Source: a virus
Taxonomy: Duplodnaviria; Caudoviricetes
IMG/VR virus record: IMGVR_UViG_3300042291_002130
Span: 1-52,785 of that record
Reading direction: 5' to 3' (one strand)
Length of the DNA stretch: 52,785 bases
A program made the position numbers and the translations under genes. Shown here piece by piece: positions 22,867 to 52,785 of the stretch (within the stretch, counting starts at the first letter, position 1; each line of letters starts with the position of its first letter). The notes under the pieces were generated by a model that searched no databases, had not been told where the DNA came from, and saw nothing but the letters and a program-made list of their open reading frames with translations.

Positions 22867-23426
22867 TCTACCTCAGTATCTACTGAGGTTTCAGTTGAAG
22901 TAGTAGCAATCGGTGGTTCCATTTGTGTATCCTGTTGAGAAATATATTCATCGTATATTTCTCTAGCACTAGCAGTACGTAGTATACTTGATGCAGCACC
23001 TTCATATTTAATAGCAATAATCGATGCTGCTGACTCAACAGTTGGAGCCGCTTCTACTAATTGTTTAATAGGTTTAGTTACAGTAAAATATTTACTATTT
23101 AATTCAATATTAATAAATTCAAGTTGACCATCAATTGATTGCCACTTAGGTAACTTCTTTAAGCTACTTAATCTTGAATCTCCCCATTGAACTAATCCGT
23201 AGTGGCCAGAAGTAGCCTTTAGATTAGGTTCAAATTTAGATTCTGCAAAAATATTTCCACAAAGAGCTGCTGCTAGCTTTGGAGAATATTCATATTTAGT
23301 AACGAGTTTATCCATTATAGATAACGCAATATTAAAAAGGTGGGAGTATTTCCCACCTTTTTCTTTATTAAAATATGAAGCTTCATTTAGTCGCTTCCAT
23401 TGTTTAAATTCTAAAATATATCCCAT
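22863..23426 (-). CDS. Phage tail lysozyme (Phage_lysozyme2-like), virion-associated
   Basis: AAALCGNIFAES.F.P...YGLVQW...R...QLEFI..EL...YE...R...A; N-terminus ILEFKQWKRLNEA. Confidence 0.8.
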   Translation of the reverse strand: MGYILEFKQWKRLNEASYFNKEKGGKYSHLFNIALSIMDKLVTKYEYSPKLAAALCGNIFAESKFEPNLKATSGHYGLVQWGDSRLSSLKKLPKWQSIDGQLEFINIELNSKYFTVTKPIKQLVEAAPTVESAASIIAIKYEGAASSILRTASAREIYDEYISQQDTQMEPPIATTSTETSVDTEVD

Positions 23427-39646: not shown

Positions 39647-40357
39647 ATGAAAAATATATTTATATTACCAACAGACCAACCAAGTAGATTGAGATTTTTT
39701 TGCGGTAGATTAGAGTTAATGAGATTAGTACCTAAAAAATCTGATATAATTTTTCAACACATCTATATCACATCTGATGAAGAGATTAAAGATGGAGATT
39801 GGATGATTAGAGGTAATGAACAACCAACATTAGTTACTCCTAATTTCTTTTGGGATTTTGGGGTTAGATATTATAAAATCATCCTAACAACAGACCCAAC
39901 TCTAATTGCAGATGGTGTACAAGCTATTGATGATGAGTTCTTAGAATGGTTTGTAAAGAATCCTACTTGTGATTTTGTTGAAGTTGATAGAGACGAAAGA
40001 GAAGTTGGAAATCACTTAGGTGGAATTGCTACTGAATATGGTTATTACAAAATCATCATACCAGAAGAAGAACCTAAAAAAGAAACATTAGAAGAAGCTG
40101 CTGAAAAGTATGCTAATAAAGAATTAAATAATGAAGTAACTTCAAAAGTTGGAAATTTCTATGGGTTTAGTAGTTCATTTATGGAAGGTGCTAAATGGCA
40201 ATCTGAAAAACTGTATAATGAAGAAGATGTCAGAGAATTACTTATGAAAGCTTTAACACATAATGACCATAATCTTTGTGGTTCATTGGTTACAGTAGAA
40301 GGTGAAATAAGAACTGCAAATTTTGGAGTTTGGTTTGAAGAAAATAAAAAGAAATAG
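39647..40357 (+). CDS. Two-module protein ending in a 'KETLEEAAE' module
   Basis: N-module KIILTTD..LI.DGVQAIDDEFLEWFVKNP; C-module KETLEEAAE...FMEGAKWQ...YNEED...WFEENKKK. Confidence 0.65.
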   Translation: MKNIFILPTDQPSRLRFFCGRLELMRLVPKKSDIIFQHIYITSDEEIKDGDWMIRGNEQPTLVTPNFFWDFGVRYYKIILTTDPTLIADGVQAIDDEFLEWFVKNPTCDFVEVDRDEREVGNHLGGIATEYGYYKIIIPEEEPKKETLEEAAEKYANKELNNEVTSKVGNFYGFSSSFMEGAKWQSEKLYNEEDVRELLMKALTHNDHNLCGSLVTVEGEIRTANFGVWFEENKKK

Positions 40358-40358
40358 C

Positions 40359-40568
40359 ATGGAAAAAGAAACATTAGACGAAGCTGCTGAACGACATGAC
40401 TCAGATAGAGATTCATTTATATCTGGTGCTAATTGGCAAGCCCAAAGAATGTACAGTAGGCAAGATATAATCGACTTTGTGTACTTCATTAATAGTAGAC
40501 ACTTCAATAGGTATACAGTAGATACCGATGAAGTTGATTTATTTATTGAACAATTTAAAAAAGGATAA
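40359..40568 (+). CDS. 'KETLEEAAE' family paralog 4 (start moved to 40359)
   Basis: MEKETLDEAAE...FISGANWQAQRMYS...FIEQFKKG. Confidence 0.65.
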   Translation: MEKETLDEAAERHDSDRDSFISGANWQAQRMYSRQDIIDFVYFINSRHFNRYTVDTDEVDLFIEQFKKG

Positions 40569-40588
40569 ATTTTTAGTAAGTGGTATTT

Positions 40589-40705
40589 AGTCAGGTGGCG
40601 GAATGGAGTGGGGTGTCCTCGCTCGTTGGTAGACGCACATATCCATACAGGGATGACACAGTACTGTATTACTGTGTCTTACAAGTTCGAATCTTGTCCT
40701 GACTA
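40589..40705 (+). tRNA. tRNA-like RNA 1 (Leu-like scaffold, D-loop insertion, non-canonical anticodon arm)
   Basis: Acceptor AGTCAGG/CCTGACT-A; T arm ACAAG-TTCGAAT-CTTGT; D arm GCG...AGACGC with an inserted GAGTGGGG/CCTCGCTC hairpin; 9-bp variable arm GACACAGTA/TACTGTGTC. Confidence 0.7.
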
Positions 40706-40725
40706 CAAAAATTAAGTAGAGAAAA

Positions 40726-40923
40726 ATGAAGTTATTAAAGGTTGAAGAGTGGAATTATCATATCATATACATAAATGACAATGAAAATTACCAGGTATAT
40801 CGAAGAATAGACCAAACCCGTTGGGAAAAGTACCATAAGAATCAATGGAGACCGATTACTGACTACTCAGCATTAGAAAAACTATTTACCCAAAGGGATA
40901 CCACAAGAGACCAGGTAAAATAA
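40726..40923 (+). CDS. Hypothetical protein following tRNA-like RNA 1
   Basis: AGAGAAAAATG start context. Confidence 0.55.
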   Translation: MKLLKVEEWNYHIIYINDNENYQVYRRIDQTRWEKYHKNQWRPITDYSALEKLFTQRDTTRDQVK

Positions 40924-41014
40924 TCTGATTATGGACCATCACCCTACCTATTGGGGTTCACCGGCCACTCTACTTGATCCCCAAACTAGAAAAAATTGAA
41001 CCCTAAATAGACAA

Positions 41015-41040
41015 CTAGTCTCGGGACTACGGAGTCCAGC
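41015..41040 (+). repeat. ACTACGGAGT hairpin/palindrome site, first copy (CTAGTC-N-GGGACTACGGAGTCCAGC)
   Basis: Exact core at 41026, 41901, 43435, 43762, 44953, 47249, 50480, 52755; one mismatch at 42729 and 43199; all on the + strand. Confidence 0.85.
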
Positions 41041-41132
41041 GTTAGACTCACACTTAAAATATAAACAAGTAATCCTAGAGACTTTTTATTGTCTAAAATC
41101 TTTAGTATAATAGTTTTATAAATGATAACTTT

Positions 41133-41208
41133 AGTCAGGTGAATGGTAATTGGTAACCGAAACCGTCCAGGTGATGTTGAGATGCAGGTTCGAATCCTGT
41201 CCTGACTA
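41133..41208 (+). tRNA. tRNA-like RNA 2 (acceptor + T arm intact; D/anticodon region unrecognisable)
   Basis: AGTCAGG...GCAGG-TTCGAAT-CCTGT-CCTGACT-A; TAGTATAATA ~20 nt upstream. Confidence 0.65.
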
Positions 41209-41233
41209 CTAACTTAAAATAAAAATAAAAATT

Positions 41234-41506
41234 ATGAAAAAATTTGAAGACTTAGAGTTTGAAAAAATTGAAAACGATACATTCAAAACCGGTGTGACTA
41301 GTAGAATGGTGTTTGAAAATGGGTATGGAGTATCTGTCGTTTCGCACACATATTCATATGGTGGTAAGGAAGGTTTATATGAAGTTGCGGTATTAGGTAA
41401 AGATGGAGACTTAACTTATGATACACCAGTAACAAATGACGTAATTGGATATTTAGAACCAGTAGAAGTTACTGATATTATGAAACAAGTTCAAGAGTTA
41501 AAATAA
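41234..41506 (+). CDS. Conserved phage hypothetical protein
   Basis: FENGYGVSVV...SYGG..GLYEVAVL...YDTPVTNDVIGYL. Confidence 0.7.
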   Translation: MKKFEDLEFEKIENDTFKTGVTSRMVFENGYGVSVVSHTYSYGGKEGLYEVAVLGKDGDLTYDTPVTNDVIGYLEPVEVTDIMKQVQELK

Positions 41507-41510
41507 CATC

Positions 41511-41596
41511 AGTCAGGTGGCGGAATGGTAGACGCTATACTTAAGCAGTTGAAGCTGGGTAATTCAACGATACAGGTTCGAATCCTGTCCTGACTA
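41511..41596 (+). tRNA. tRNA-like RNA 3 (Leu-like D arm, no canonical anticodon stem)
   Basis: AGTCAGG-TG-GCGGAATGGTAGACGC...GTTGAA/TTCAAC...ACAGG-TTCGAAT-CCTGT-CCTGACT-A. Confidence 0.7.
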
Positions 41597-41615
41597 CTCT
41601 AATATCGAGAGAAAA

Positions 41616-41882
41616 ATGATAAACCTAGAAGAGATCAAGGAGATCCGAGCCTACACCAGTGGTATTGTTGAAATGGGCTCAGTAACTATTATTATCAATA
41701 ACCGGGAATGGCAGTTTGATATAGAGGAATGGGCAGTACACGGCAACTTGGAATTTCGGGTCTACTTAGCTAGATGGCAAGACTCTAAAGACCTAGCACT
41801 AGAATTAGAAGAAGGTAGAGTAGTAGACAACCACTTTTGCAGATTTATCCAAGATGAATATTACAGGATTACAGCCAAATAA
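41616..41882 (+). CDS. Hypothetical protein following tRNA-like RNA 3
   Basis: AGAGAAAAATG start context, as at 40726. Confidence 0.55.
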   Translation: MINLEEIKEIRAYTSGIVEMGSVTIIINNREWQFDIEEWAVHGNLEFRVYLARWQDSKDLALELEEGRVVDNHFCRFIQDEYYRITAK

Positions 41883-41897
41883 TCACTAGTCTATACC

Positions 41898-42031
41898 GGG
41901 ACTACGGAGTCCAGCTACTAATACTACTATACTAAATAACTAGAGATAAAGATAAGAGAAAAGATCTCTAGATAGAAGAGACCCCAATAGAGATACGCAA
42001 TAACCAGGAACGGAGATCCTAGAGACCCCAA
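41898..42031 (+). repeat. ~135-bp imperfect direct repeat, copy A
   Basis: GGACTAC(G/A)GAGTCCAGCTAC...TCTCTA.ATAGA.GAGACCCCAA.AGAGAT...CCAGGAAC.GAGATCCTAGAGACCCCAA, shared with 43196-43332. Confidence 0.85.
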
Positions 42032-42050
42032 CCAACCAGTCAGCTATACA

Positions 42051-42692
42051 TCAGCCGTGCATCAGCCGTACATCAGCCCATGCCCTAAACCCATCAATAT
42101 CTGCTCTCGACCCAAGTATATGTATGTCCTTTGGATCAAATACCGCTAACTCTACCCGGTCTCTACGATTTGCTTTCAAATGACTAAGATCGACTTCAAT
42201 GCCGCCTCCTTGTTCTAAACTCTTCTTGACAGAATCAAGTTCTCCCTCGTCTTTTAGTTCATTTGGATAACCCAATATTGAATCATATTGACTCATATCA
42301 AAGTGCTGCTTAAGTTTTGCAACGCTCTGAGTAGTCAAACCGGTCTTTTTAAGTATTTCAGCAGCGTTCTCCCTGTTAATTATTAGAGGATTTTTTACGT
42401 TTACTTTAGCAAGTAGTGTTCTTGTTTTAAGAAGTTTTTCAATAAACTTGGGAAGATTGCTCTGCACATCGTAAAAAGAAAAGTAGGCACCTCCTAAATA
42501 GCTCAGTCTAAACTCATCAAACTTTTTAGCGCTTGTTTTGTGAAACATGACCTGTTTTATCCTACTTTCTGGAAATACTGTTTCAAGATATTCCAAATAA
42601 TCTTGATCAGTGCCTATTTCTCGAAGGATATCATCAATTTCTTCTAACTTTATGTGATTTTCATTAATAAATTCATTAAAGCTAACTAACAT
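42051..42692 (-). CDS. ADP-ribosyltransferase-like protein (ART-PolyVal type) with CTS N-terminus
   Basis: MFHKT...FDEF...GAYFS...VNVKNP...YDSI...ELAVFDPKDI (H-Y-E ART pattern); starts MLVSFNEFINE. Confidence 0.6.
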   Translation of the reverse strand: MLVSFNEFINENHIKLEEIDDILREIGTDQDYLEYLETVFPESRIKQVMFHKTSAKKFDEFRLSYLGGAYFSFYDVQSNLPKFIEKLLKTRTLLAKVNVKNPLIINRENAAEILKKTGLTTQSVAKLKQHFDMSQYDSILGYPNELKDEGELDSVKKSLEQGGGIEVDLSHLKANRRDRVELAVFDPKDIHILGSRADIDGFRAWADVRLMHG

Positions 42693-42758
42693 GTTTTCTC
42701 TTTTTTAGTTATTTATTCTAGTCACGGGACTACGGAATCCAGCTCTAGCTATACTAAA

Positions 42759-42786
42759 AGAGTCTCTACTATTGGGCAGAGACTCT
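42759..42786. terminator. Hairpin AGAGTCTCT-N10-AGAGACTCT, probable terminator for 42800-43135
   Basis: Perfect 9-bp stem with a short U-run on the minus strand. Confidence 0.55.
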
Positions 42787-42799
42787 ATTATAATTAGTA

Positions 42800-43135
42800 T
42801 TAGTTAAACTGAACTCTAGCAGTTCCTAATTGTATTTTGTTAGCCCACTTCTTAACTTCAGCTTTAGATCCTGTAAAAGAAACCTCGAACTCAGCATCAT
42901 ATGGTTCATCGTATTTTGGAGTACTGCCTCTTCTTCCCCAACCAGTAAGAGCAGGTTTGCCTACTAATTTTAATCCTTCCGGAAAACCTATTCTATCAAA
43001 GTCTTCTTTAAGAGCTTTAGCTGCTTCTGATTTACTCATTTGATCAGCCCAAGTCCAGTCAAACTCTAATTCAATAGTAGCTTTTCCAAGGGTCTCTTTG
43101 CTTTCATTAAGCCATTCAGTAAATTGTTTAATCAT
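42800..43135 (-). CDS. Small virion-internal protein candidate
   Basis: MIKQFTEWLNES; AATAAATA upstream. Confidence 0.6.
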   Translation of the reverse strand: MIKQFTEWLNESKETLGKATIELEFDWTWADQMSKSEAAKALKEDFDRIGFPEGLKLVGKPALTGWGRRGSTPKYDEPYDAEFEVSFTGSKAEVKKWANKIQLGTARVQFN

Positions 43136-43195
43136 CTTCTAAAAATTTTTTATTTTATTTATTTATTATACTATATTTATTTATTATACTACAAC

Positions 43196-43332
43196 AGGAC
43201 TACAGAGTCCAGCTACCCAGTATCAGTATACCAGAGAATCAAGATAAAAAGAAATAGGTGAAGAGTCTCTAAATAGACGAGACCCCAACAGAGATGCCTA
43301 ATCACCAGGAACAGAGATCCTAGAGACCCCAA
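43196..43332 (+). repeat. ~135-bp imperfect direct repeat, copy B
   Basis: See copy A at 41898-42031. Confidence 0.85.
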
Positions 43333-43463
43333 TCTACTACCTGACTACCCATGCCCCTGATCTAGAACAGTCTTTACCCCTGACCCAGAACTACTTTTAA
43401 ATGCGCCGTCATGTCGCTCCGGCCACCTACGTTTACTACGGAGTCCCGAACGGGAACTTCTCG

Positions 43464-43538
43464 AGGGGCTCAACTTAGGGGTTCAACTTGCCAATTGGGT
43501 ATCACACCGGTGCCACCAACTTTCAAATGAACCCCTAA
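43464..43538. repeat. 13-bp tandem repeat plus 11-bp inverted repeat upstream of the recombinase
   Basis: AGGGG(C/T)TCAACTT x2 at 43464-43489; TTAGGGGTTCA (43475) / TGAACCCCTAA (43528). Confidence 0.7.
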
Positions 43539-43569
43539 TCTCGGGATAAATAATTAAAAAAGTTAAACT

Positions 43570-44259
43570 ATGTGGAGACCAGAGGCACTTGAAGTTCTTG
43601 GATGCAGTATCAGCACATTCAAGAGATATGTAAAAGCTGGCAAGATCAGGTATGATCAAGTCGGGAACCGTTACTTATATTGGGACGATGACGTCTATAA
43701 GCTTAAAGGAAAGCACCTAATCAGGGGTCACTGGTCAGTAGCTTATTGCAGAGTAGCCGGGACTACGGAGTCCGACCGGAGGCTTATGCTCCAACAGCAG
43801 CAGCTAGTCAGGAACTGGTGTGCACAGCGAGGTATCTCTCTAGATAAGTTGTACGATGACTGGGCTCCCGCTACAGACTTCTCGCTAGACTGGAGACCCG
43901 CTCTGCATGACCTGATCCAGGACGTGATCAAAAAGAGGGTGTCAGTAATTATAGTAGAGACTACTGACAGACTGGCCCGAGTTGGCTGGGAGCTCTTTCC
44001 TGCCTGGTTCCAATATTATGGGGTAGAGGTAGTAGTAATCAACTCGGCCATCACCGTGCCAGAATATCAGCTAGAACAGGAAAAGGATCTCACGAATCTC
44101 TTACTTAAAGCTGGTGTAGATCGACTAGACAAGCTTGGTGCTGACTCCTTGCCTAAACCTAAGAAGAGGGAGAAGCGTGAACATCCTGGCAAGATAACTC
44201 CAAACTGGGAAGGAAAACCAGAGGAGCCAACTAAACGGGATCTTTCAGATCTAATGTAA
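43570..44259 (+). CDS. IS607 TnpA-like serine recombinase (N-terminal HTH + resolvase domain), catalytic Ser replaced by Ala
   Basis: EALEVLGCSISTFKRYVKAGKI HTH; AYCRVA instead of Y.RVS; RPAL..L; DRLARVG.E...GVEVVVIN. No tnpB and no IS ends seen. Confidence 0.85.
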   Translation: MWRPEALEVLGCSISTFKRYVKAGKIRYDQVGNRYLYWDDDVYKLKGKHLIRGHWSVAYCRVAGTTESDRRLMLQQQQLVRNWCAQRGISLDKLYDDWAPATDFSLDWRPALHDLIQDVIKKRVSVIIVETTDRLARVGWELFPAWFQYYGVEVVVINSAITVPEYQLEQEKDLTNLLLKAGVDRLDKLGADSLPKPKKREKREHPGKITPNWEGKPEEPTKRDLSDLM

Positions 44260-44309
44260 TTCTTCAGTTCTTTAGCAGAGACACTCGCCAGCCAAGATAA
44301 ATAAACAAT

Positions 44310-44729
44310 ATGAAATCATTTATAGAATTTATAGCAGAGAGTCGGGCATTTGACCTAGACCACTTGCCTAGACTAGGGGAGATTCTTAGCTCGGCTGAAA
44401 GGAACATGCGGGCTCCATACACTTGGGCATTTGTAAGATTTATAGCAGATCAACTAAGGCTGAGCCAAACCGGAGATATTGTAGAGATTGGACCTAGCCA
44501 CTTTAGATTTAGAGACATGCAGGAGATCTACGCCAAGGATCCTCTTTCTTGGGGTCAAAAATCATACAATAATTCATGGTTTAAATATTTTACCGCAAAG
44601 ATAAGATATGTCTGCGAGATGAGTGAAGGCTTAAGATCGGAGGCTATAACTTTCTGGCTCTCTACAGAGGAATATGAAAAGGTATTTGGTATGCCCCAGG
44701 AAATAGATACTATATTCGCTGATTTTTAA
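44310..44729 (+). CDS. Internal head protein with near-canonical T4 capsid-targeting sequence
   Basis: MKSFIEFIAES versus T4 IPII/IPIII MKTYQEFIAE; GATAAATA at 44296. Confidence 0.7.
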   Translation: MKSFIEFIAESRAFDLDHLPRLGEILSSAERNMRAPYTWAFVRFIADQLRLSQTGDIVEIGPSHFRFRDMQEIYAKDPLSWGQKSYNNSWFKYFTAKIRYVCEMSEGLRSEAITFWLSTEEYEKVFGMPQEIDTIFADF

Positions 44730-44976
44730 ATAGGTCCTCCTAAGGGACTCTCCCTTTCTGGATATTAGAATATACTAGTGAGATGAGCTAGCCTCGCCAT
44801 AGGAAAGAGTACCTCTCTAGATTGGGCTCCGGATTCCATGGCATACTAGGCACCCAAACGTCCCAGCGGGCAGGGAAATCCAGAGACTCGGCTCGCTCCC
44901 GTGTACAGGCGGGTGTCACGACGACGCGCGATAGCAGAGACTCGGTAGGGTTACTACGGAGTAAACCCCTTAACCC

Positions 44977-45004
44977 AAAAAATGGGAACCTACTGGCTCC
45001 CATT
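44977..45004 (-). terminator. Rho-independent terminator of the minus-strand block
   Basis: AATGGGA/TCCCATT stem with a U-tract on the minus strand. Confidence 0.65.
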
Positions 45005-45024
45005 CCTAGTCGTCAAACTACCTC

Positions 45025-46200
45025 TTATAATTGCGCGTACTGAGCGAATTGAAGGTCGTAACCTGCATTTACGCCTTTAGCGAAAAGTTCTCCTGCTTGT
45101 GCTTTCAATTCCCACTGATCGGCTAATTCAATTCCTGAATTGTTTGAACCTAGGTAGGTAAGTGAATTTACAACATCCCATATTGACATTCCTGTCTTGA
45201 TAAAACTTTTTTGTTTTTCATTTAACTTGTATGGGTCTTGGCCTTTTTGCATAATGCGGGCCATTGTATCTCTGTGTCCATCAAAGTAGTTACGTTCGAT
45301 AGTATCAATAAAGTTCTTTTTATATTGTGGGTCAGACTCTCTTACTTTACGTTGAGCCAACATCATAGCACTGTCAACTTCAAATAAGCTTGCCTTAGTG
45401 CCAACAGCTGTTGCTAGGGATCCGGCGAATGCAGCAGGTACGAAGCCAGACTTTTTCATAGTATCTACTTTATTTAAGAAGATTCGGATATCGTCGCCAC
45501 TAGTTCCACCTAGTTTAAACTTTTCTTCAAAGTGTAGGTCACGGTTAGAACCAATAGATCCGCTACCGAAACTTACTCTTAATCCATTAGAGCATACTAG
45601 GCGGGTATTATAAGTCTCAATAATAGTATCTTTACTCGACTGGGTAATTGAGAACCCAAATTTAAAGAACTCGTCTTTGCCTGCTCCTGGGAAACCTACC
45701 TCTTCTGAGTTTAGGAAGTTAATGGATGAGGTTCCGCCATTTGGACTGTGGTCAACCGTCTCTATAATTAGGGAAGGGTGTTCGTTCATGATTTTACTAG
45801 TCATATCGAATAGTGAATCATTAGTCAATCGTCGGTATCTCTTAGGATCGCAGATATCAATTACTTCTCGAGTTTGGGTATTAGCAATCAGCAAGACATC
45901 CTTTGCTCCAATACCTCGACGGTATTCGTTTAGTGCATTCATAAATGCTGCAGCCACTTTACCATTGTCGTTCTTAATAAACTCTCTAGTCAAGGAAGCA
46001 TTCATCTTCAGCATGCCAGCAAGTTTCAAGAAAAAGTTAGGGCCAACCTTTACTAGTGTTCCGCCGATTTCAAGTTCATTACGGCTGAACGAAGTGTCAG
46101 TTAATTTAAGTGCAGAAATTGGCACCTGTTTTGTTGCGTGCTCATTAGCTACCATTACTTCTCTGATTGCATCGAACTGGGAATTTGTTACTTCTTTCAT
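45025..46200 (-). CDS. DUF932/DUF945-like protein
   Basis: FGFSIT.S...RLVCSNGL; C-terminal SIWDVVNSLTY. Confidence 0.6.
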   Translation of the reverse strand: MKEVTNSQFDAIREVMVANEHATKQVPISALKLTDTSFSRNELEIGGTLVKVGPNFFLKLAGMLKMNASLTREFIKNDNGKVAAAFMNALNEYRRGIGAKDVLLIANTQTREVIDICDPKRYRRLTNDSLFDMTSKIMNEHPSLIIETVDHSPNGGTSSINFLNSEEVGFPGAGKDEFFKFGFSITQSSKDTIIETYNTRLVCSNGLRVSFGSGSIGSNRDLHFEEKFKLGGTSGDDIRIFLNKVDTMKKSGFVPAAFAGSLATAVGTKASLFEVDSAMMLAQRKVRESDPQYKKNFIDTIERNYFDGHRDTMARIMQKGQDPYKLNEKQKSFIKTGMSIWDVVNSLTYLGSNNSGIELADQWELKAQAGELFAKGVNAGYDLQFAQYAQL

Positions 46201-46265
46201 AATTAAATTTTTTTTAGGTTAGTTTGACTAATATTATAATACTATTTTGGTTTTAACTTTTAAAA

Positions 46266-46295
46266 TTTGGGGAGCATTATTTTTAACTCCCCAAA
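46266..46295. terminator. Hairpin terminator after the RadA-like gene
   Basis: TTTGGGGAG/CTCCCCAAA. Confidence 0.65.
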
Positions 46296-46302
46296 GATAT
46301 TT

Positions 46303-47508
46303 TTATCGACCCATTGAGATAGCTACGTCTGTTCCTAAGTCATCGCTCTCGCCATTGATATAATCAATTATTTCAACCATCTCATCAGTTACCTCTTCTA
46401 CGGAGTGATCTTCTTCGACTGCTCGTGAACCGCCTAGGAAGATATTCTCAAACTCGCGAGTCAAGTCTTGTTGACGTAGGGTTTCAGTATTCTCAAAGCT
46501 TCTAATCTCTTCAGTCTCTTGGAATCGAGCAGTATCGTATACTACTGCACCAGTCTCGTCCAGCTTGTAGTAGAGTCTCTTGCCAGTGCCGCTACCTCCT
46601 CGTCTGTTCTTTGAGAACTCAATATAACGTTGGCCAGCCAAGTCGAAGCGTATCTCTAGCATGGCAGTAGTTGCGTGCTTAAGATAAGTAGAACCTACAT
46701 ACTGACCACCTTTAGTCATGTGTTGAATTGCCAAGACTGCGTTACCGCATTTCTCTGCAGCGTCTATCATCATGTTAGTTAACCAGCTTTCTGCTTTAGT
46801 TGACTTCCAGCCATGCACCTCTTTTAATTTTACTAAGACATCTTGGTAAGAATCTAATAGGATAATATCATGGTCGCCATTGAAACTCTTCTCTAAGACT
46901 TGGGATAATTGACCGTTCTTAACATAGTCCATTAGGAGTAGGGTAGGAACCTTGCCAATAGCTGGGGTCTTGCGGTAATAGAACATAATATCGTTACGTG
47001 TCATCTCGCTAGAAATGTAGAGTATCTTCGCCTCTGGATTTTGGTCTACGATAGAAGCTAAGAGATCTAGCATGACAGTTGACTTGCCGACGCCTGACTC
47101 TCCAATTACAATATTAACTGTTCCGCCATAGAGTCCACCACCTTCTTCGTGATCAGAAAAGAGATCGTCGATCTTCTTGCCTGCCTTGAATAATCCAAAG
47201 CTTGGGAATTCCATGTCCTCTACTCGGATAATATTAGGCTCGTCAGTTACTACGGAGTGACCTATGCGTGGCTCAGCAGGTGTCTCTACAACCGGCGTAC
47301 TTGCTACTGAACTTGCACCATGACCCTCTGCCTGAATCTTTTTGATTACTCCATTAAATAGTCCATAAGAGATATCTTCGTCTTTAGGCACCTTATCAAA
47401 TGCTGTGAATAGATCCAATACCTTAGCTCTTGGTACAACTCCTTCATGGGTATCGTTAAACCATTGACGAACTTCTTGCTCTTTCTTTCCTCCTTTAATC
47501 TCAATCAT
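46303..47508 (-). CDS. RadA/Sms-like RecA-superfamily ATPase
   Basis: GESGVGKST, LYISSE, ILLDSYQ, HMTKGG..VGS..LKH, KNRRG; no N-terminal Zn finger and no Lon-like C-domain. Confidence 0.8.
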   Translation of the reverse strand: MIEIKGGKKEQEVRQWFNDTHEGVVPRAKVLDLFTAFDKVPKDEDISYGLFNGVIKKIQAEGHGASSVASTPVVETPAEPRIGHSVVTDEPNIIRVEDMEFPSFGLFKAGKKIDDLFSDHEEGGGLYGGTVNIVIGESGVGKSTVMLDLLASIVDQNPEAKILYISSEMTRNDIMFYYRKTPAIGKVPTLLLMDYVKNGQLSQVLEKSFNGDHDIILLDSYQDVLVKLKEVHGWKSTKAESWLTNMMIDAAEKCGNAVLAIQHMTKGGQYVGSTYLKHATTAMLEIRFDLAGQRYIEFSKNRRGGSGTGKRLYYKLDETGAVVYDTARFQETEEIRSFENTETLRQQDLTREFENIFLGGSRAVEEDHSVEEVTDEMVEIIDYINGESDDLGTDVAISMGR

Positions 47509-47567
47509 AATTTCTAATTTTTTTAGGTTAGTTTGACTTAATTATTATACTAAAAAACTGTTGTACT

Positions 47568-48005
47568 TTAAAACTTATTACGACTTAATTCATGTAATCT
47601 TGTTAGTTCTTCAGCGGTTAAACTTTCGACTCCTCCTCTGTCACTGATAAGCTCTAACAACTCGTCTAGGTTAAGAGTACACTGCTCGTCTCCATACAGG
47701 TGGTCAAAGTCTGCATTTGCTTGAGCAAAAGCTGGAAACATCAGGTGGCATAGGTGTACGCCGGTGTCTCCAGCTGGGTCCCATACAATTACAGGTAGTG
47801 AGTCTCCATGCTCGTCAGCAACCTTTTTATAGAGGTCTACTATCTCGTCAGGTGTAAAGTCTGTTTTAATAATAGATATCACGCCAAATGGAGTACCGCA
47901 TCCTACACCTTTTTGGGAACGCCCGCTGATAGTCTGAATAATTGCGTATTCTTTTTGAGTTGGCATATTAGAACCAAAGCGAAAGATAACTAATTTCTTT
48001 TTCAT
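47568..48005 (-). CDS. Hypothetical early protein with DUF6576-like C-terminal helix pair
   Basis: LDELLELISDRGGVESLTAEELTRL. Confidence 0.55.
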   Translation of the reverse strand: MKKKLVIFRFGSNMPTQKEYAIIQTISGRSQKGVGCGTPFGVISIIKTDFTPDEIVDLYKKVADEHGDSLPVIVWDPAGDTGVHLCHLMFPAFAQANADFDHLYGDEQCTLNLDELLELISDRGGVESLTAEELTRLHELSRNKF

Positions 48006-48030
48006 AATCGTTTTGTTTTTAAGTTATATA

Positions 48031-48063
48031 GTAAATATAACCAATCACTATTAATCTTGACAA
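48031..48063 (-). promoter_or_regulatory. Repeated early promoter, Bacteroidota-type (-33 TTG, -7 TAnnTTT(G/A))
   Basis: Minus strand TTGT(C/A)...GGTTATATTT(A/G). Copies at 48031-48063, 48816-48848, 49060-49092, 49418-49450 (exact TATATTTG), 51242-51274, 52690-52722; each is 20-30 nt before an ATG. Confidence 0.8.
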
Positions 48064-48118
48064 TTGGGTGAAAATCTTTTTGCACAAAAGTCCAGAGACA
48101 CTTGGCCTGTCTGCATGA

Positions 48119-48146
48119 AAAAAGCCAGTCTCCTTAGAAACTGGCT
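48119..48146 (-). terminator. Rho-independent terminator
   Basis: AGCCAGT/ACTGGCT stem with a U-tract on the minus strand. Confidence 0.65.
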
Positions 48147-48172
48147 CGACTCGGAAAAGCAGCAACCTTAGT

Positions 48173-48586
48173 CTAAATTTTTATTTCATGGTTAATTTCT
48201 TTTGCTAATTCAAATGGAGATCCTCCGTGACTTGCTGCCCACCATCTCCCATCTAATCCAATCACATAACCGTACTCTTCATAGTCTGATTTAAAAAAGT
48301 CTTCGACACTGTTATCGATATGGAAGGTTAGGTCTTCTCCACGGTCTCTGTGATATGCGACAGTTACTCCACCTTGAGGAGACCCGAATGAGTGGGGTCC
48401 ATTTGGCTCTACCTGCTCGTCTAATGAAGCGAGATCTCCCAACTCCACCAAGGCTAGAGTCTTTGCTCTATCATAACACTCTAATAGGATCTTACCATTA
48501 TGTGAGACGTATCCATCAAAGTGACAGTAAACTGATTTTACTGTGCCGTCTTCTAATTCGATTCCAATTCTGCTTCTAGTTGCCAT
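48173..48586 (-). CDS. Conserved phage early hypothetical protein
   Basis: MATRSRIG...SVYCHFDGY..HNG..L...LGDL.SL...AYHRDRGE...EEYGY. Confidence 0.7.
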   Translation of the reverse strand: MATRSRIGIELEDGTVKSVYCHFDGYVSHNGKILLECYDRAKTLALVELGDLASLDEQVEPNGPHSFGSPQGGVTVAYHRDRGEDLTFHIDNSVEDFFKSDYEEYGYVIGLDGRWWAASHGGSPFELAKEINHEIKI

Positions 48587-48597
48587 AGTATCTCTTT

Positions 48598-49651
48598 TTA
48601 TTGGTTAGGTAATTTCTTTTTTAAGGTTCTTAATCGAGCCTTTAATTTTTTAATCTCTAATTTACGAAAGTAAGGTCCGTGATTCCATGGTGTACATCCT
48701 TCAGGCTGTGCCCAGACACTAACTATTTTAGTCTTGTCGTTTTTAAGAAATTCAATTCTTTCTTCGATGGCTTTGATTTGTTCAAGTATCATAGGTTATT
48801 GGGTTAAGTGCTTAAGTAAATATAACCATTATTCTTTAATCTTGACAATCCTGTGAAAGATTTTTTTGCTTTTGATATTCTTCATGGCACTGTTCAAATT
48901 CTTCAGTTGTGAATACCTTTACTATACTTCCTCCTTCAATCGTTTTAAGACGCTCTCTTAATTGAACCGATTCTACTATTTCAAAGTGTCGGTCTCCTCT
49001 TGGTGAGATGATTAACACAATTCTGATTTCTTCCATGATTTGTATGTTTTAGGTTATAAGTAAATATAACCATTACTTTTTAATCTTGACAATTCTATTA
49101 AAACTATTTTTTAAAAACTTCCAGCACGTTCTACTGCAAATGTTAACTCTATTCCCCATGGAAACTTGTATGCTCTGAAACCACCAGTACCTGCGTTTGA
49201 ACTTGGCTCTTCACTCTCTATTACTGTGGCTAAACTGAATCTAGCAGTACCTCTTAATTCAAAGATAGTCGGTCTTCTGTACTCGTCAGAGGATTGCCAT
49301 TTCCAATCAACTTGATCCATGTGAGCTAACACCTTTTCAAAATCAAAGCGATCCATTATCTTGTCTCTCTGTTCGTATAATTCTTCTTTAGTCATAATAA
49401 GATATTTAAGTTATAATACAAATATAACCAACTCTTTTTAATCTTGACAATCTAGCTGGATAAAAAGTCTAGAGACCCTCGTCCTCGGTGATTGCGGATA
49501 TTGAATCCAATAAGGAGATAAGTTCGGCCCATACAAAGCGTTCAACGTCGGTCTCTGCCGTGCTCAACTCTTGTTGGTACATTTCTTTGCGGTTAGCTAC
49601 AAATTCAGAGACGCGCTCTAGCTTAGTTACACTTAAATCTTTTACTATCAT
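48598..49651 (-). CDS. Four small early hypothetical proteins (48598-48792, 48836-49036, 49111-49395, 49469-49651)
   Basis: The first three each have their own copy of the early promoter. Confidence 0.6.
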
Positions 49652-49652
49652 A

Positions 49653-49910
49653 TTAATAATGTTTTACTTTTACAATGGTTGCCGCTTGCTGGCCACCTAC
49701 TTGTTTAATGGTATAAGCACCTTTTACTTTAATCCATTCTAATGTTTTGCGATACGTTGAGTCAGGTTTACTTATCTCTCCAAGAAAGAGAGCGATTTGA
49801 TATGCTTGTTTTACTGTATGACAAACGCCGAGTGTTTCTCTCAGCGCTTGCTCCCATTCAATATCGGGTTCTTTATTACTCATTACAAGATACTTATCCC
49901 TTCTTTCCAT
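49653..49910 (-). CDS. Hypothetical protein
   Basis: ORF within the operon. Confidence 0.5.
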   Translation of the reverse strand: MERRDKYLVMSNKEPDIEWEQALRETLGVCHTVKQAYQIALFLGEISKPDSTYRKTLEWIKVKGAYTIKQVGGQQAATIVKVKHY

Positions 49911-50151
49911 CCTCTATCTTTTTTTGAAGGTCGAGAATAAACGCGCAATCTTCGTAGTCTTCCTTCTCTTCTAAATGGTTTAAGATTACTTTCATTGCTG
50001 TTAATTTATTCTCTATTGGTGCATCATCTTCTACTGCAAAGTCAGGAAAAGTTTTTAGAGATGTCAAGACTAGATCCATAAATTTATCGTAGTCTCGATC
50101 CCGAACTTCCATCAACATTTGAATAAACTCTTGCTCGCTAAAATCATCCAT
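49894..50151 (-). CDS. Small acidic protein with UVR-like C-terminal motif
   Basis: EEKEDYEDCAFILD resembles the UvrB/C motif E.YE.AA.LRD. Confidence 0.5.
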   Translation of the reverse strand: MDDFSEQEFIQMLMEVRDRDYDKFMDLVLTSLKTFPDFAVEDDAPIENKLTAMKVILNHLEEKEDYEDCAFILDLQKKIEDGKKG

Positions 50152-50473
50152 TCTTTTCTAGGTTTATTGAGTTATGTGCATCTACTATAATCAAGCAAGC
50201 GGTATCCTCGCCAAATGTCTCCATCAATTGATTGACTAACATATGGTATCCGCTATTAACAAGCTCTATTCGTAGGTCAGTTAACTCTTCATCATTAACG
50301 GTCAGCACAGATTTGCCGTGGTCGTCGATGAGGTCCCTCATAACATCTCTATAAATAGCTGTTGCATGAAAATATTGCACTAATTGTTTTGGAGATACTT
50401 TCCCAATCTCCTTTACCTGGTCAACAGTTAAAACTACCTCATCTTCACTGTTAAATATAATTCCCTGTTTCAT
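50144..50473 (-). CDS. Hypothetical protein
   Basis: Downstream of the sigma factor; an ACTACGGAGT site lies in its leader. Confidence 0.55.
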   Translation of the reverse strand: MKQGIIFNSEDEVVLTVDQVKEIGKVSPKQLVQYFHATAIYRDVMRDLIDDHGKSVLTVNDEELTDLRIELVNSGYHMLVNQLMETFGEDTACLIIVDAHNSINLEKNG

Positions 50474-50494
50474 ATCGTTACTACGGAGTAAAAT

Positions 50495-51214
50495 TTATAA
50501 TACTTCTAATTTCATTTTTTGAATCGATGCCTTTACGATTTGAGAAACTCGGACGTTAGTCATCTCGTATTTTTCTGCAATAATATCGGTTGGCATCTCA
50601 TAGTCTCGGCCTATTCCAAAGTAATCCATAATAATTGCTCGGTCTCGGTCTTTAAGAAGGTTTAACGCACACTTAACTTTAAATCGGATTGAATCCATCT
50701 CTATATTGAACTCAACTTCTGATCCAGATTTTAAGACAATATCTCCAATGGTATTTCCACCTTCATCTCCAATTGGTGCATCGATGTCTACCTTACGCGG
50801 AATCTCAATGTCTTCGCCTTTCATCTTTGCTTTATAGATAGCATACTCTTGATTGTGAGGCAGTCTTACAATACGACCAGTCTTAGCAACAGACTCGTTT
50901 AGTTTTTTACGAATCCACAACTGAGCATAGTTAATGAATCGCTGACCGTCTCTAGGTTTGAAATTAAGAGCTGCTTCAAGTAGACCCATGTTTCCTTCTT
51001 GGATTAAGTCATCGATTGGCACACCTTGTCCAATGTGGCGATTTGCAAGCTTAACGACAAACTTTAAGTTTGCGCTTACTAATTTTTCTACTGCTTTAGC
51101 GTCTCCCTCTTGGATTGCTACTACTAATTGTTTCTCTTCGCCGATAGTAAGGGGCGCGTTCTTTTGTATTGTTTTAAAATACTTAGGTAGGTTTTCTGAT
51201 GTTTCGAATTTCAT
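50495..51214 (-). CDS. RNA polymerase sigma-70 family factor (RpoD/SigA-like, no region 1.1)
   Basis: KLVSANLKFVV, DLIQEGNMGL..AA..F, RFINYA..WIRK, RIVRLP, region 4 L..RDR.I...FGI...RVSQI. Confidence 0.92.
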   Translation of the reverse strand: MKFETSENLPKYFKTIQKNAPLTIGEEKQLVVAIQEGDAKAVEKLVSANLKFVVKLANRHIGQGVPIDDLIQEGNMGLLEAALNFKPRDGQRFINYAQLWIRKKLNESVAKTGRIVRLPHNQEYAIYKAKMKGEDIEIPRKVDIDAPIGDEGGNTIGDIVLKSGSEVEFNIEMDSIRFKVKCALNLLKDRDRAIIMDYFGIGRDYEMPTDIIAEKYEMTNVRVSQIVKASIQKMKLEVL

Positions 51215-51330
51215 AAGTTCTATTTGTTTTTAAGTTATATAGTAAATATATCTATAAGTTTAATAAAAGTACAATCCTGGTGAAAACTTTTTTAAAATAA
51301 TTCCAGAGACTCCAAACCAGCAGACAAAGA

Positions 51331-51349
51331 AAAAGCGGATTGCTCCGCT
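51331..51349 (-). terminator. Rho-independent terminator
   Basis: AGCGGA-TTGC-TCCGCT with a U-tract on the minus strand. Confidence 0.65.
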
Positions 51350-51355
51350 CTTTAC

Positions 51356-51568
51356 CTATTCTTCTTCATCTGAAGTACAGGTTATTAGCTTTCCGTGCTT
51401 GACGGCTTCCCAATATTCTGACTCTGTCATGGAGTATCCACCATTTAAATCTTTTTGTACACAGTCTGAGCAAGTAATTGCATCTGCATCGATGTCAACA
51501 TTACTAACTACTTCTCCACAACACTTGCATGCGAGATTTTTAAATCCTAATGTTCTCTTCTTACTCAT
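51356..51568 (-). CDS. Small Zn-finger protein
   Basis: CKCC...CSDC. Confidence 0.6.
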   Translation of the reverse strand: MSKKRTLGFKNLACKCCGEVVSNVDIDADAITCSDCVQKDLNGGYSMTESEYWEAVKHGKLITCTSDEEE

Positions 51569-51870
51569 AACCTAGATTTTAATTGTGATAACTCAGAGCA
51601 TAATTCATACTCCTCTATTTCTGTGTAATATTCAATACATCCGTCAACTGCGGTTGCCATTGCTGGTCGGTCTAACATAAAGACAGACTCGGTCTCTTCT
51701 ATCATAAATACTGGAATCTCGTCCAGTTCATGCTCAATCATTCGGCATACAGCTAGGAACACGGCATCTGCTATCTCTGCACGATAGTGTATTGCAAAAG
51801 CATCCCCATCTGTTAGGCCTTCCGCGCTAAACGTTGGGAAAGATAATTCTATGTTTTCATCCTCTTCCAT
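51565..51870 (-). CDS. Acidic protein with UVR-like C-terminal motif
   Basis: YYTEIEEYELCSEL. Confidence 0.5.
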   Translation of the reverse strand: MEEDENIELSFPTFSAEGLTDGDAFAIHYRAEIADAVFLAVCRMIEHELDEIPVFMIEETESVFMLDRPAMATAVDGCIEYYTEIEEYELCSELSQLKSRL

Positions 51871-51889
51871 TACTATATTATACTATTGA

Positions 51890-52666
51890 TTAGTCTTGGG
51901 TTTTTATTAGACCTATTTTTTGTGCAGCATAGAATCTTTCTAATTCAATCTCGGCTCTTAGCTTGGCTCCGTCCAGCGTCTCTTCAAACTGGTCAGCTGG
52001 CAAGAACTTAGATACTTCAGTAATCTTAAGATAGATGCCCAATACTTTTTCCTTGTGATTAAGGAGAAGCCAGACTTTATCCTGCCCGGCTCTTCCCTCG
52101 ACTATCCTGTCTCTAAGCGGTCCCCACTCCATTAGAGAACAGTTTGTAAGAATCCACGATGGTCGTATACTCGAGAGCGGCCATCCGACTCTCTAACAAC
52201 AACATTACTTCCACTCCAGCGAACAGTTAATCCATCTCGACTATAGACATTATCCACTGTTTGTAAGTGTCCTACTAGCGACTCGACTGTCCCATCTCTC
52301 CTTACCACCAGCCATTCACCTAATTGACTATTATAGTCAGCATCAATAACTCCTCGAGTAATTGCAACTTCCTGAATCCTACGATTTGGGTCTAACCAAG
52401 TAAGTAGCTCTCCATCTTTAATCCAATATTCCATAGCTTTTGTTTTTAAGTTCTTAAGTAAATATAAAGTCTGTGTGGAAATAGCCTCCATCACTTTGGC
52501 GACCCCATTCTCCTTGAGCTAACTCGTCAGTCCACTTAACTTTTACTAGGCGTGTCTCAGACGTATCGCAATCTTCGATTACCGTTACCTTAGCTCCTGG
52601 CGATGCTGCGTAATATTGCGGAATTAGAGTATTCCATTCTCCAATCGTTCCTGTCTTAATTATCAT
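51890..52666 (-). CDS. Three early hypothetical proteins (51890-52132, 52132-52434, 52454-52666)
   Basis: Operon behind the promoter at 52690-52722. Confidence 0.55.
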
Positions 52667-52785
52667 ATCGTTTTGTTTTTAAGTTATAAGTAAATATAAC
52701 CATTACATTTAAACAAGTACAATCTTATTGAAACTTTTTTACTAGAGACTCTTTACTACGGAGTAAAAAGAAAAGGGTCAGCTTG

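Follow-up and report, generated by a model that had tools for sequence, protein, structure and literature searches.

Loss of the recombinase nucleophile in an IS607-TnpA-like phage protein whose gene lies in an oriented array of a 10-bp word

IMG/VR record IMGVR_UViG_3300042291_002130, from an uncultured phage of the Caudoviricetes, was analysed over positions 1 to 52,785 (the window). At 43570..44259 it carries the gene for a 229-aa protein that resembles TnpA, the serine recombinase of the insertion sequence (IS) IS607, and lacks the nucleophilic serine. The serine is missing across the family, the protein is under purifying selection, and the gene is linked to a polar 10-bp word that is selected at the DNA level and confined to one domain of the genome. 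The explanation that we favour, at about even chances, is that this transposase derivative binds DNA at specific sites without cutting it and nucleates a complex over a gene block. Both the binding of the word by the TnpA-like protein and the function of such a complex are what we infer from these observations.

The protein has the domain order of IS607-family TnpA (IS607, IS1535, ISC1926), namely an N-terminal helix-turn-helix (HTH) of the MerR/excisionase type followed by a resolvase-type catalytic domain. In particular, the Pfam Resolvase model matches residues 57-161 (E 1.6e-10) and HTH_17 matches residues 5-37 at E 3e-4, which is under the Pfam cut-off, while the NCBIfam IS607 transposase model NF033518 aligns with residues 5-164 and reaches 80.1 bits against a cut-off of 110, so that the family threshold is missed. 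The fold is shared as well. Indeed, a family profile finds the catalytic domains of the IS607-like TnpA structures 3lhk, 6dgc, 6dgb and 3ilx, and Foldseek comparison of the AlphaFold2 model with the 3lhk and 6dgc chains gives target-normalised template modelling scores of 0.70-0.74. The active site is where the phage protein departs from IS607 TnpA: the motif Y-x-R-V-S, which holds the nucleophile, reads Y59-C60-R61-V62-A63, and the D-x-x-S-G loop reads D97-W98-A99-P100-A101, with DW[AC]P[AS]T as the form of the family. The DRLAR motif is present as residues 133-137. These readings of the three motifs, together with GATAAATA at 43545 upstream of the gene and GGGACTACGGAGTCC at the codon after Ala63, had been described in the original prediction, made from the letters of the window, and all of them were found again. 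In a hidden Markov model alignment to 3lhk and 6dgc, A63 falls on the nucleophilic serine, with two additional residues behind it; in the AlphaFold2 model, strand beta1 covers residues 55-62, a loop residues 63-66, and helix A starts at residue 67. The C-terminal tail (residues 186-229, 44125-44256) has no counterpart in IS607 TnpA and comprises a basic stretch, a conserved PGKI[TV]P[ND]W and the terminal RDLSDLM. It is missing from two shorter relatives, L066 and L067, and looks like a short docking peptide for a putative partner.

The loss of the serine can be followed through the family. Among 5.8 billion proteins searched, 67 homologs were found, with 49-90% identity and mostly 229-230 aa long, and in the 68-row alignment that they form with the window's protein, position 63 is Ala in 41 rows, Asn in 8, Pro in 7, Gly in 5, Ser in 4 and Thr in 3, whereas R61, V62, D97, W98, P100, T102, R134 and R137 are invariant. 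Serine in close homologs, which would have spoken for an ordinary recombinase, is thus limited to 4 of 68 rows. The idea that Ala63 might be conserved under purifying selection holds in part: the serine is lost family-wide and the protein is under such selection, but the alanine itself gives way to N, P, G, S or T. More distant homologs have Asn (L066, 46% identity) or Gly (L067, 42%) at this position, the motif of L113 (31%) reads YCRAAR, again without serine at position 63, and a lineage of 31-33% identity (L150-L152) has YCRAAG, YCRAST or YTRSAP. An exhaustive profile search was also run over 1.84 billion representatives of 50%-identity clusters and its best 150 were inspected; aligned with hmmalign, by which a few loop residues may be misplaced, they have serine at the nucleophile position in 6/26 at E <= 1e-30, in 22/40 in the next band and in 56/71 beyond, so that serine rises with distance. 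R61 and R134 are almost fixed in all bands.

Selection was measured on 46 distinct coding sequences (CDS) from public contigs. The pairwise ratio of nonsynonymous to synonymous substitution rates (dN/dS) has a median of 0.13-0.18 for the catalytic domain and of 0.44 for the HTH, at a median dS of ~1.0-1.2. The catalytic domain is therefore under purifying selection, with dN/dS about 0.15. A single CDS has an internal stop, that of L037 (1817-2491), where it lies in frame in the DW-P-ST motif region (STE*SLEE); it may reflect sequencing error, stop recoding or a pseudogene. Since position 63 mostly lacks serine across the family and dN/dS is low, the protein is functional and the loss of the serine is old. 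The loss is a family trait, neither a read error nor a fresh mutation.

Constraint of another kind is found in the DNA just behind codon 63, where the in-gene copy of the word begins. Synonymous positions are frozen there: Gly64 is encoded by GGG in 40/44 CDS, Thr65 by ACT in 44/44, Thr66 by ACG in 38/40, Glu67 by GAG in 43/44, Ser68 by TCC in 43/43 and Asp69 by GAC in 38/40. In contrast, R61 is encoded by AGG, CGA, AGA and CGG and V62 by all four of its codons, and the relative codon entropy is 0.14 over codons 64-69 against ~0.8 gene-wide. The exact 12-mer ACTACGGAGTCC is kept in register in 38/46 CDS. The members without the word (P0044, P0045, P0053, P0056, L022 and L036) are also without the peptide GTTES, and GIGMES, GRTYED, GRDDKA and GTSEL are found where the word is gone. 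Given that codons 64-69 are frozen and that the peptide changes freely after loss of the word, the conservation of GTTES (residues 64-68) is largely a constraint at the DNA level, that is, mostly selection on the word. A second in-gene copy overlies YYGVQ, in a different frame, in 19/46 CDS (a clade of roughly 50% identity). In each of the three loci of the 31-33% identity lineage, a third is located 149 nt from the start (LGS, nt 141-149), where by our own reading it overlies L-G-S of the linker. In-gene copies have thus arisen at three places and in at least two frames.

The word extends well beyond the gene. Its minimal conserved form is the 10-mer ACTACGGAGT, with inverted arms ACT and AGT around an asymmetric centre (ACT-N4-AGT). 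Allowing one mismatch, the 12-mer has 6 matches in the window, all on the plus strand, against 0.09 expected. The 10-mer has 12 matches against 1.24 expected; 11 are on the plus strand, and all 11 lie within 41026-52764. Eight of them are exact (starting at 41026, 41901, 43435, 43762, 44953, 47249, 50480 and 52755) and three have one mismatch (42729, 43199 and 46397). The first 41 kb contain no exact copy and a single one-mismatch match, on the minus strand at 23194. The array reaches the window end and is at least 11.7 kb long here. The repeat that the original prediction had placed after the active-site codon is indeed present; its weight had been underestimated, both as a constraint on DNA and as part of an oriented array of this length.

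A similar organisation is present in the relatives. Across 46 loci (329 kb), all 146 occurrences of the exact 12-mer are on the gene strand and none on the opposite one, and in nine whole related contigs of 12-128 kb, 88/89 copies of the 10-mer are on one strand per contig (forward/reverse 0/15, 6/0, 1/13, 0/11, 14/0, 7/0, 16/0, 2/0 and 0/4). The array spans 8-25 kb and starts ~2.5 kb upstream of the TnpA-like gene; copies are spaced by 60-900 bp around and inside the gene and then recur every 1-3 kb for ~20 kb across a convergent block. In six domains from the window and relatives, 48/77 copies are intergenic and 29/77 lie in called open reading frames (ORFs), some of them short or doubtful. 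The arms are constant and the centre is lineage-specific (ACGG, AGGG or CCGT, with ACTCCGTAGT as the flipped form). In the 31-33% identity lineage, the most frequent 10-mer around the gene reads ACTCCCTAGT when taken from the DUF932 strand; on the gene strand it is ACTAGGGAGT and differs from the window word by one central base. All 10 copies of this variant in a 271-kb contig, 100% complete by CheckV, are on one strand and within 8.2 kb that include the gene; one copy is inside the gene and two precede it by ~190 and 250 nt. Another genome, G012, has both word centres in equal orientation. In G007 (42% identity, with an HTH near-identical to the window's), all 16 copies are on the strand opposite to the gene, and the order NAMPT, recombinase, DUF932, sigma factor is the mirror image of the window order. 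Polarity is thus uniform within a genome and not fixed relative to the genes. Two distant homologs were traced to loci for the word comparison: P0070 led to G007 again and P0077 to no locus.

The array is linked to the gene. The same neighbours, namely genes for a DUF932 protein, an AAA_25 ATPase and a sigma factor, stand beside homologs from 77% down to 31% identity. The core ACTACGGAGTCCCG occurs in 63 IMG/VR loci, of which 57 are without the homolog and have a single copy each; of the 6 with the homolog, 5 hold at least 3 cores and 1 holds one. No array without the gene was found, and every DUF932-neighbour locus with enough flank carries the TnpA-like gene. A mobile IS is recognised by its own ends, often a tnpB, multiple copies or changing locations and presence in cellular genomes, and the gene does not fit this description: it keeps a fixed syntenic place in phages, contrary to the idea that its relatives might sit in a recognisable IS607 element. 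The absence of tnpB, already proposed, was confirmed by a scan of the 52.8-kb record with the TnpB zinc-ribbon domain PF07282, which gave no match, and the record has no further resolvase domain. The family is all but missing from cellular genomes: those of 185,579 species gave one match, L132, which is 82% identical. It comes from a metagenome-assembled genome, where its contig of only 1.6 kb had been assigned to a candidate-phylum bacterium, and is probably a mis-binned phage fragment. Homologs in INPHARED phages are all <35% identical, and the portal protein of the phage is of a type common to T4-like and very large uncultured phages, at <40% identity.

From these data a mechanism can be proposed. 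Dimers of the protein would recognise ACT-N4-AGT and would assemble cooperatively on co-oriented copies, by analogy with IS607 TnpA on the direct repeats of the left end. Nucleation would take place where the copies are densest, within the gene for the protein and immediately before it, and the gene would thereby be autoregulated. The complex would then extend or bridge across the adjacent block with the sigma-factor, ATPase and DUF932 genes, which may thus be controlled or organised, either in transcription or through an iteron-like origin function. A part in packaging, which the original prediction had also raised, would be conjecture. A bolder version, which we hold only tentatively, is that a non-cutting protein and a co-oriented 10-bp word organise a block of 8-25 kb as an iteron- or centromere-like system or a block-wide silencer, of a kind undescribed for phages, with a word whose centre drifts between lineages and which recolonises the CDS of its own gene.

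Known systems share parts of this picture. Binding of IS607-family TnpA to short motifs in direct repeat is cooperative and is followed by spreading (PMC6188088), and a short word is directly repeated around the phage gene too. The phage gene differs in having neither tnpB nor IS ends nor mobility, and in being a fixed single copy; the sites of the phage are distributed over 8-25 kb, those of IS607 over ~60 bp. The Tn3/gamma-delta resolvase is a serine recombinase that represses its own gene via adjacent sites and leaves accessory sites uncut. This resolvase is an active enzyme that binds DNA through a C-terminal domain, and the three sites of res are packed into a single compact locus, whereas the phage protein has an N-terminal HTH and no conserved nucleophile, and the phage words are dispersed. 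In phage lambda, iterons lie inside the initiator gene O and are clustered within a few hundred bp. The likeness here consists of co-oriented direct repeats in and next to a gene that is near replication genes (the AAA_25 ATPase in our case); the phage words are 60 bp to 3 kb apart over many kb, the protein families are unrelated, and an origin role here is conjectural. Finally, the PeSL cassettes of T4-type phages are described as intergenic modules of terminator hairpin and promoter that border variable small genes and at which homologous exchange takes place without a protein devoted to it (PMC2839356, PMC4122927). The upstream part of the phage array, with hairpins and ATAAATA beside sites, looks similar to such cassettes. 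The 10-mer, in contrast to PeSLs, is exact across lineages at saturated dS, co-oriented, also intragenic and tied to one gene.

Several points weigh against a non-catalytic binder. The invariant R61, D97, R134 and R137 are equally compatible with retained chemistry, and the AlphaFold2 model is of moderate quality only (mean pLDDT 71.5). Sites as far as 20-25 kb from the gene are at long range for a local regulator. The HTH evolves faster than the invariant word (dN/dS 0.44), L113 has the window's word yet a different putative recognition helix, and since G007 combines a near-identical HTH with a flipped word, the HTH leaves the polarity of the centre unexplained. Synteny with the array is just as close for the sigma factor, the AAA_25 ATPase and the DUF932 protein, and no genome with the array and without the gene was found, so that linkage cannot single out the binder.

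This last point leads to the alternative that survives best, although we rate it as unlikely, in which a different factor reads the word (the transcription machinery of the phage, the ATPase or the DUF932 protein, for instance) or the word acts as terminator/promoter punctuation, the TnpA-like gene being a bystander and the in-gene copies by-products. Apart from the synteny of the other genes, this would fit the position of intergenic copies between minus-strand terminator-like hairpins and the next gene start or ATAAATA, the range of 0-19 nt in the distance from word to ATAAATA, and the 29 of 77 copies inside called ORFs. However, the word is limited to 8.2 kb of the complete 271-kb genome, which is odd for a promoter element of the sigma type, and its orientation is kept even beside opposite-strand genes, while in G007 it is flipped with the gene order unchanged. 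The densest cluster, in addition, is always at and inside the TnpA-like gene, where copies arose three times.

The protein could also be a recombinase or nickase with another nucleophile (Thr65, Thr66, Ser68 or a partner), the words being crossover or nick sites and the upstream part an integron-like cassette array; this we consider rather improbable. The four invariant residues R61, D97, R134 and R137, the inverted arms with an asymmetric centre as in a crossover site, the upstream copies that bracket single ORFs with gaps of 5-87 nt and an indel between L007 and L042 that begins at a site edge would all agree with it. Indeed, the L007/L042 alignment stops at the 3' edge of the site, after which L042 has an extra AT-rich ORF between two sites. 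The original prediction had raised the three residues as possible nucleophiles; by our own reading, Thr65 comes to lie on the canonical serine when helix A (M73, Q76) is taken as the reference for the register, while the loop register of the predicted structure sets A63 at the serine position. Moreover, none of the serines and threonines is kept in every homolog: P0056 is devoid of both at 63-68, L022 and P0044 are without Thr65, and L066, L067 and the L150-L152 lineage carry other residues at those positions. Active direct repeats over 8-25 kb would delete conserved genes. A search for high-identity cassettes bounded by sites in an unrelated background found none, the 5 candidate high-scoring segment pairs (HSPs) being constant segments, and mobility of cassettes was set aside, with shared cassettes 33-61% identical, similar to the rest of the locus and no more alike than the recombinase.

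A signal at the RNA level, for processing, pairing or a ribosome-related step in long block transcripts, has in our view a slight chance of being correct. The plus-strand word contains GGAG, one G007 copy is placed as a ribosome-binding site would be, 4 nt ahead of an ATG, and in other genomes the complement is found 1-6 nt before minus-strand ATGs. Nevertheless, the orientation relative to genes is reversed in G007 with the same gene order, the hairpin-forming outer arms are missing from many copies, copies lie in several reading frames and antisense to coding genes, and no Rfam family is matched. Finally, that Ala63 stems from a read error or has newly arisen in a decaying ordinary IS607 copy, as the single substitution between GCC and TCC and the serine of 4 of the 68 homologs might suggest and as the original prediction had allowed, is contradicted to the point of near certainty by Ala in 41/68 rows with mostly N, P, G or T in the remainder, by 45/46 CDS without internal stop and a catalytic dN/dS of ~0.15 at saturated dS, and by fixed synteny, the lack of tnpB and the single short cellular match.

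Domesticated transposases are well documented in eukaryotes. To our knowledge, clear cases of domestication in phages in which the cis sites and the trans factor are both visible are rare. In a literature search that did not extend to supplements, the word appeared in no relevant context, its 5 matches being unrelated primers, and a serine-less IS607 TnpA in phages was not found, nor in the passages of PMC4058570 that were consulted. Here, a whole clade of phage proteins is without the recombinase nucleophile and still under strong selection, and an exact polar word has withstood saturated divergence, at three places even within coding sequence. With one protein and one 10-bp word, the question is directly testable. 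It bears on how a large phage sets apart or controls one block of its genome, and on the role of the 'catalytic' domain of a serine recombinase once cutting is lost.

Table 1. Coordinates of the TnpA-like gene, the word copies and neighbouring features in the window.
Feature	Position	Strand	Remark
Exact site, first of array	41026..41037	+	12-mer match
Exact site at cassette boundary	41901..41912	+	12-mer match
One-mismatch site ACTACGGAATCC	42729..42740	+	Between minus-strand terminator-like hairpin and next minus-strand promoter-like motif
One-mismatch site ACTACAGAGTCC at cassette boundary	43199..43210	+	12-mer match
Conserved upstream site, ~135 nt before ATG	43435..43446	+	12-mer match, kept in relatives
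Promoter-like motif GATAAATAA, starts 25 nt before ATG	43545..43553	+	ATAAATAA part kept in relatives
Gene for IS607-TnpA-like protein	43570..44259	+	229 aa; HTH residues 5-37, resolvase-type domain 57-161, clade-specific basic tail ending RDLSDLM
Codon 63 (GCC, Ala) at nucleophile Ser position	43756..43758	+	Varies across family
In-gene site copy GGGACTACGGAGTCC, 10-mer core 43762-43771	43759..43773	+	Begins at codon after Ala63; synonymous positions frozen
Conserved GC-rich non-coding block, ~230 nt, ends in site	44735..44965	.	Conserved in relatives
10-mer site ACTACGGAGTaa closing conserved GC-rich block	44953..44962	+	Adjoins minus-strand terminator of DUF932-like gene
DUF932-like protein, 391 aa, syntenic	45025..46200	-	Neighbour kept in relatives
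AAA_25-type P-loop ATPase, 401 aa, syntenic	46303..47508	-	Neighbour kept in relatives
One-mismatch 10-mer in ATPase gene, antisense	46397..46406	+	10-mer scan
Exact 10-mer in ATPase gene, antisense, part of HSVV codons	47249..47258	+	10-mer scan
Exact 10-mer in 21-nt gap between sigma-factor gene and next minus-strand gene	50480..50489	+	10-mer scan
Sigma-factor gene inside site domain	50495..51214	-	Syntenic in relatives
Exact 10-mer, 21 nt from window end	52755..52764	+	Array may continue past window

The promoter-like motif before the gene consists of GATAAATA (43545-43552) and the overlapping ATAAATAA (43546-43553), which is invariant in 6/6 aligned upstream regions and also present in L113 and the L150-L152 lineage. 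GATAAATA alone is weakly enriched in the window (13 against 7.3 expected, a count reached in 3/100 shuffles). ATAAATA stands 8-70 nt upstream, on the same strand, of 12/98 ORFs against 2.3 by random placement (maximum 7), mostly at 24-28 nt from the ATG. We take this motif to resemble the T4 late promoter TATAAATA, and by this analogy its timing may be late. Minus-strand terminator-like hairpins at 42786-42759 and 41985-41961 each lie beside a site, with ATAAATA motifs near; over the window as a whole, promoter-like and terminator-like sites are no more numerous than expected from shuffling.

Other properties of the sites were considered and dropped. As a hairpin GGACT-ACGG-AGTCC, the word has lost its outer arms in most intergenic copies (TT/TC/CT-ACTACGG) and only ACT...AGT is constant. 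As a -35 box, it has one minus-strand match (TGGACT, 17 nt, TATAAT, 43211-43183), but the distance from word to TATTTAT is 0-19 nt. The short spacings of 48, 57, 58, 60, 63, 68 and 85-88 nt fit no 10.5-nt rule of helical phasing, and the spacings of 326-339 nt between the -135 and in-gene copies, not always multiples of 3, do not fit an in-frame deletion. Of the BLAST HSP ends, 370 fall within 25 nt of a site where 109 were expected (maximum 142); this excess, confounded by the intergenic position of the sites, was not used as evidence of mosaic breakpoints.

The GC-rich block that ends in a site is 70-80% identical in at least 10 loci (for example, L001 7827-8075 and L019 7965-8215), with invariant stretches CCATGG, GGCAGGG, CCCGTGTAC and ACGACGCGCGATA and usually ACTACGGAGTAA at the end. 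Covariation is weak, with compensatory changes in 4/37 predicted pairs, and a search of 40000-46000 against Rfam at E <= 1 matched two tRNAs only and not this block. A partial second block is found 13-16 kb away, where it adjoins another site in G001 and G005 and lies ~560 nt before the nearest site in G003.

Some further observations concern the two parts of the array. On its downstream side, the 21-nt gap at 50474-50494 is almost filled by the site, so that the ATG of the downstream gene is preceded, at 6 nt, by the complement ACTCCGTAGT instead of a Shine-Dalgarno-like sequence. Copies likewise stand 1-3 nt ahead of a minus-strand ATG in G001, G003 and G004, in the same gene pair or another. 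On the upstream side, a module of ~160 nt, made of a site and a 72-nt GC-rich repeat (86% identity) that includes a minus-strand terminator-like hairpin, is duplicated at 41880-42036 and 43178-43337, and the array has thus grown partly by module duplication. A tRNA-like cluster occupies 40589-41597, with a tRNA-Leu(aag) at 41511-41597 by ARAGORN and an Rfam tRNA at 41133-41208 (32 bits), and the repeats D1 and D15 suggest a third related tRNA-like copy near 40589-40726. GC skew changes sign within 40700-41900, with a cumulative peak near 41.6 kb, where mostly plus-strand genes give way to the minus-strand block exactly at the array start.

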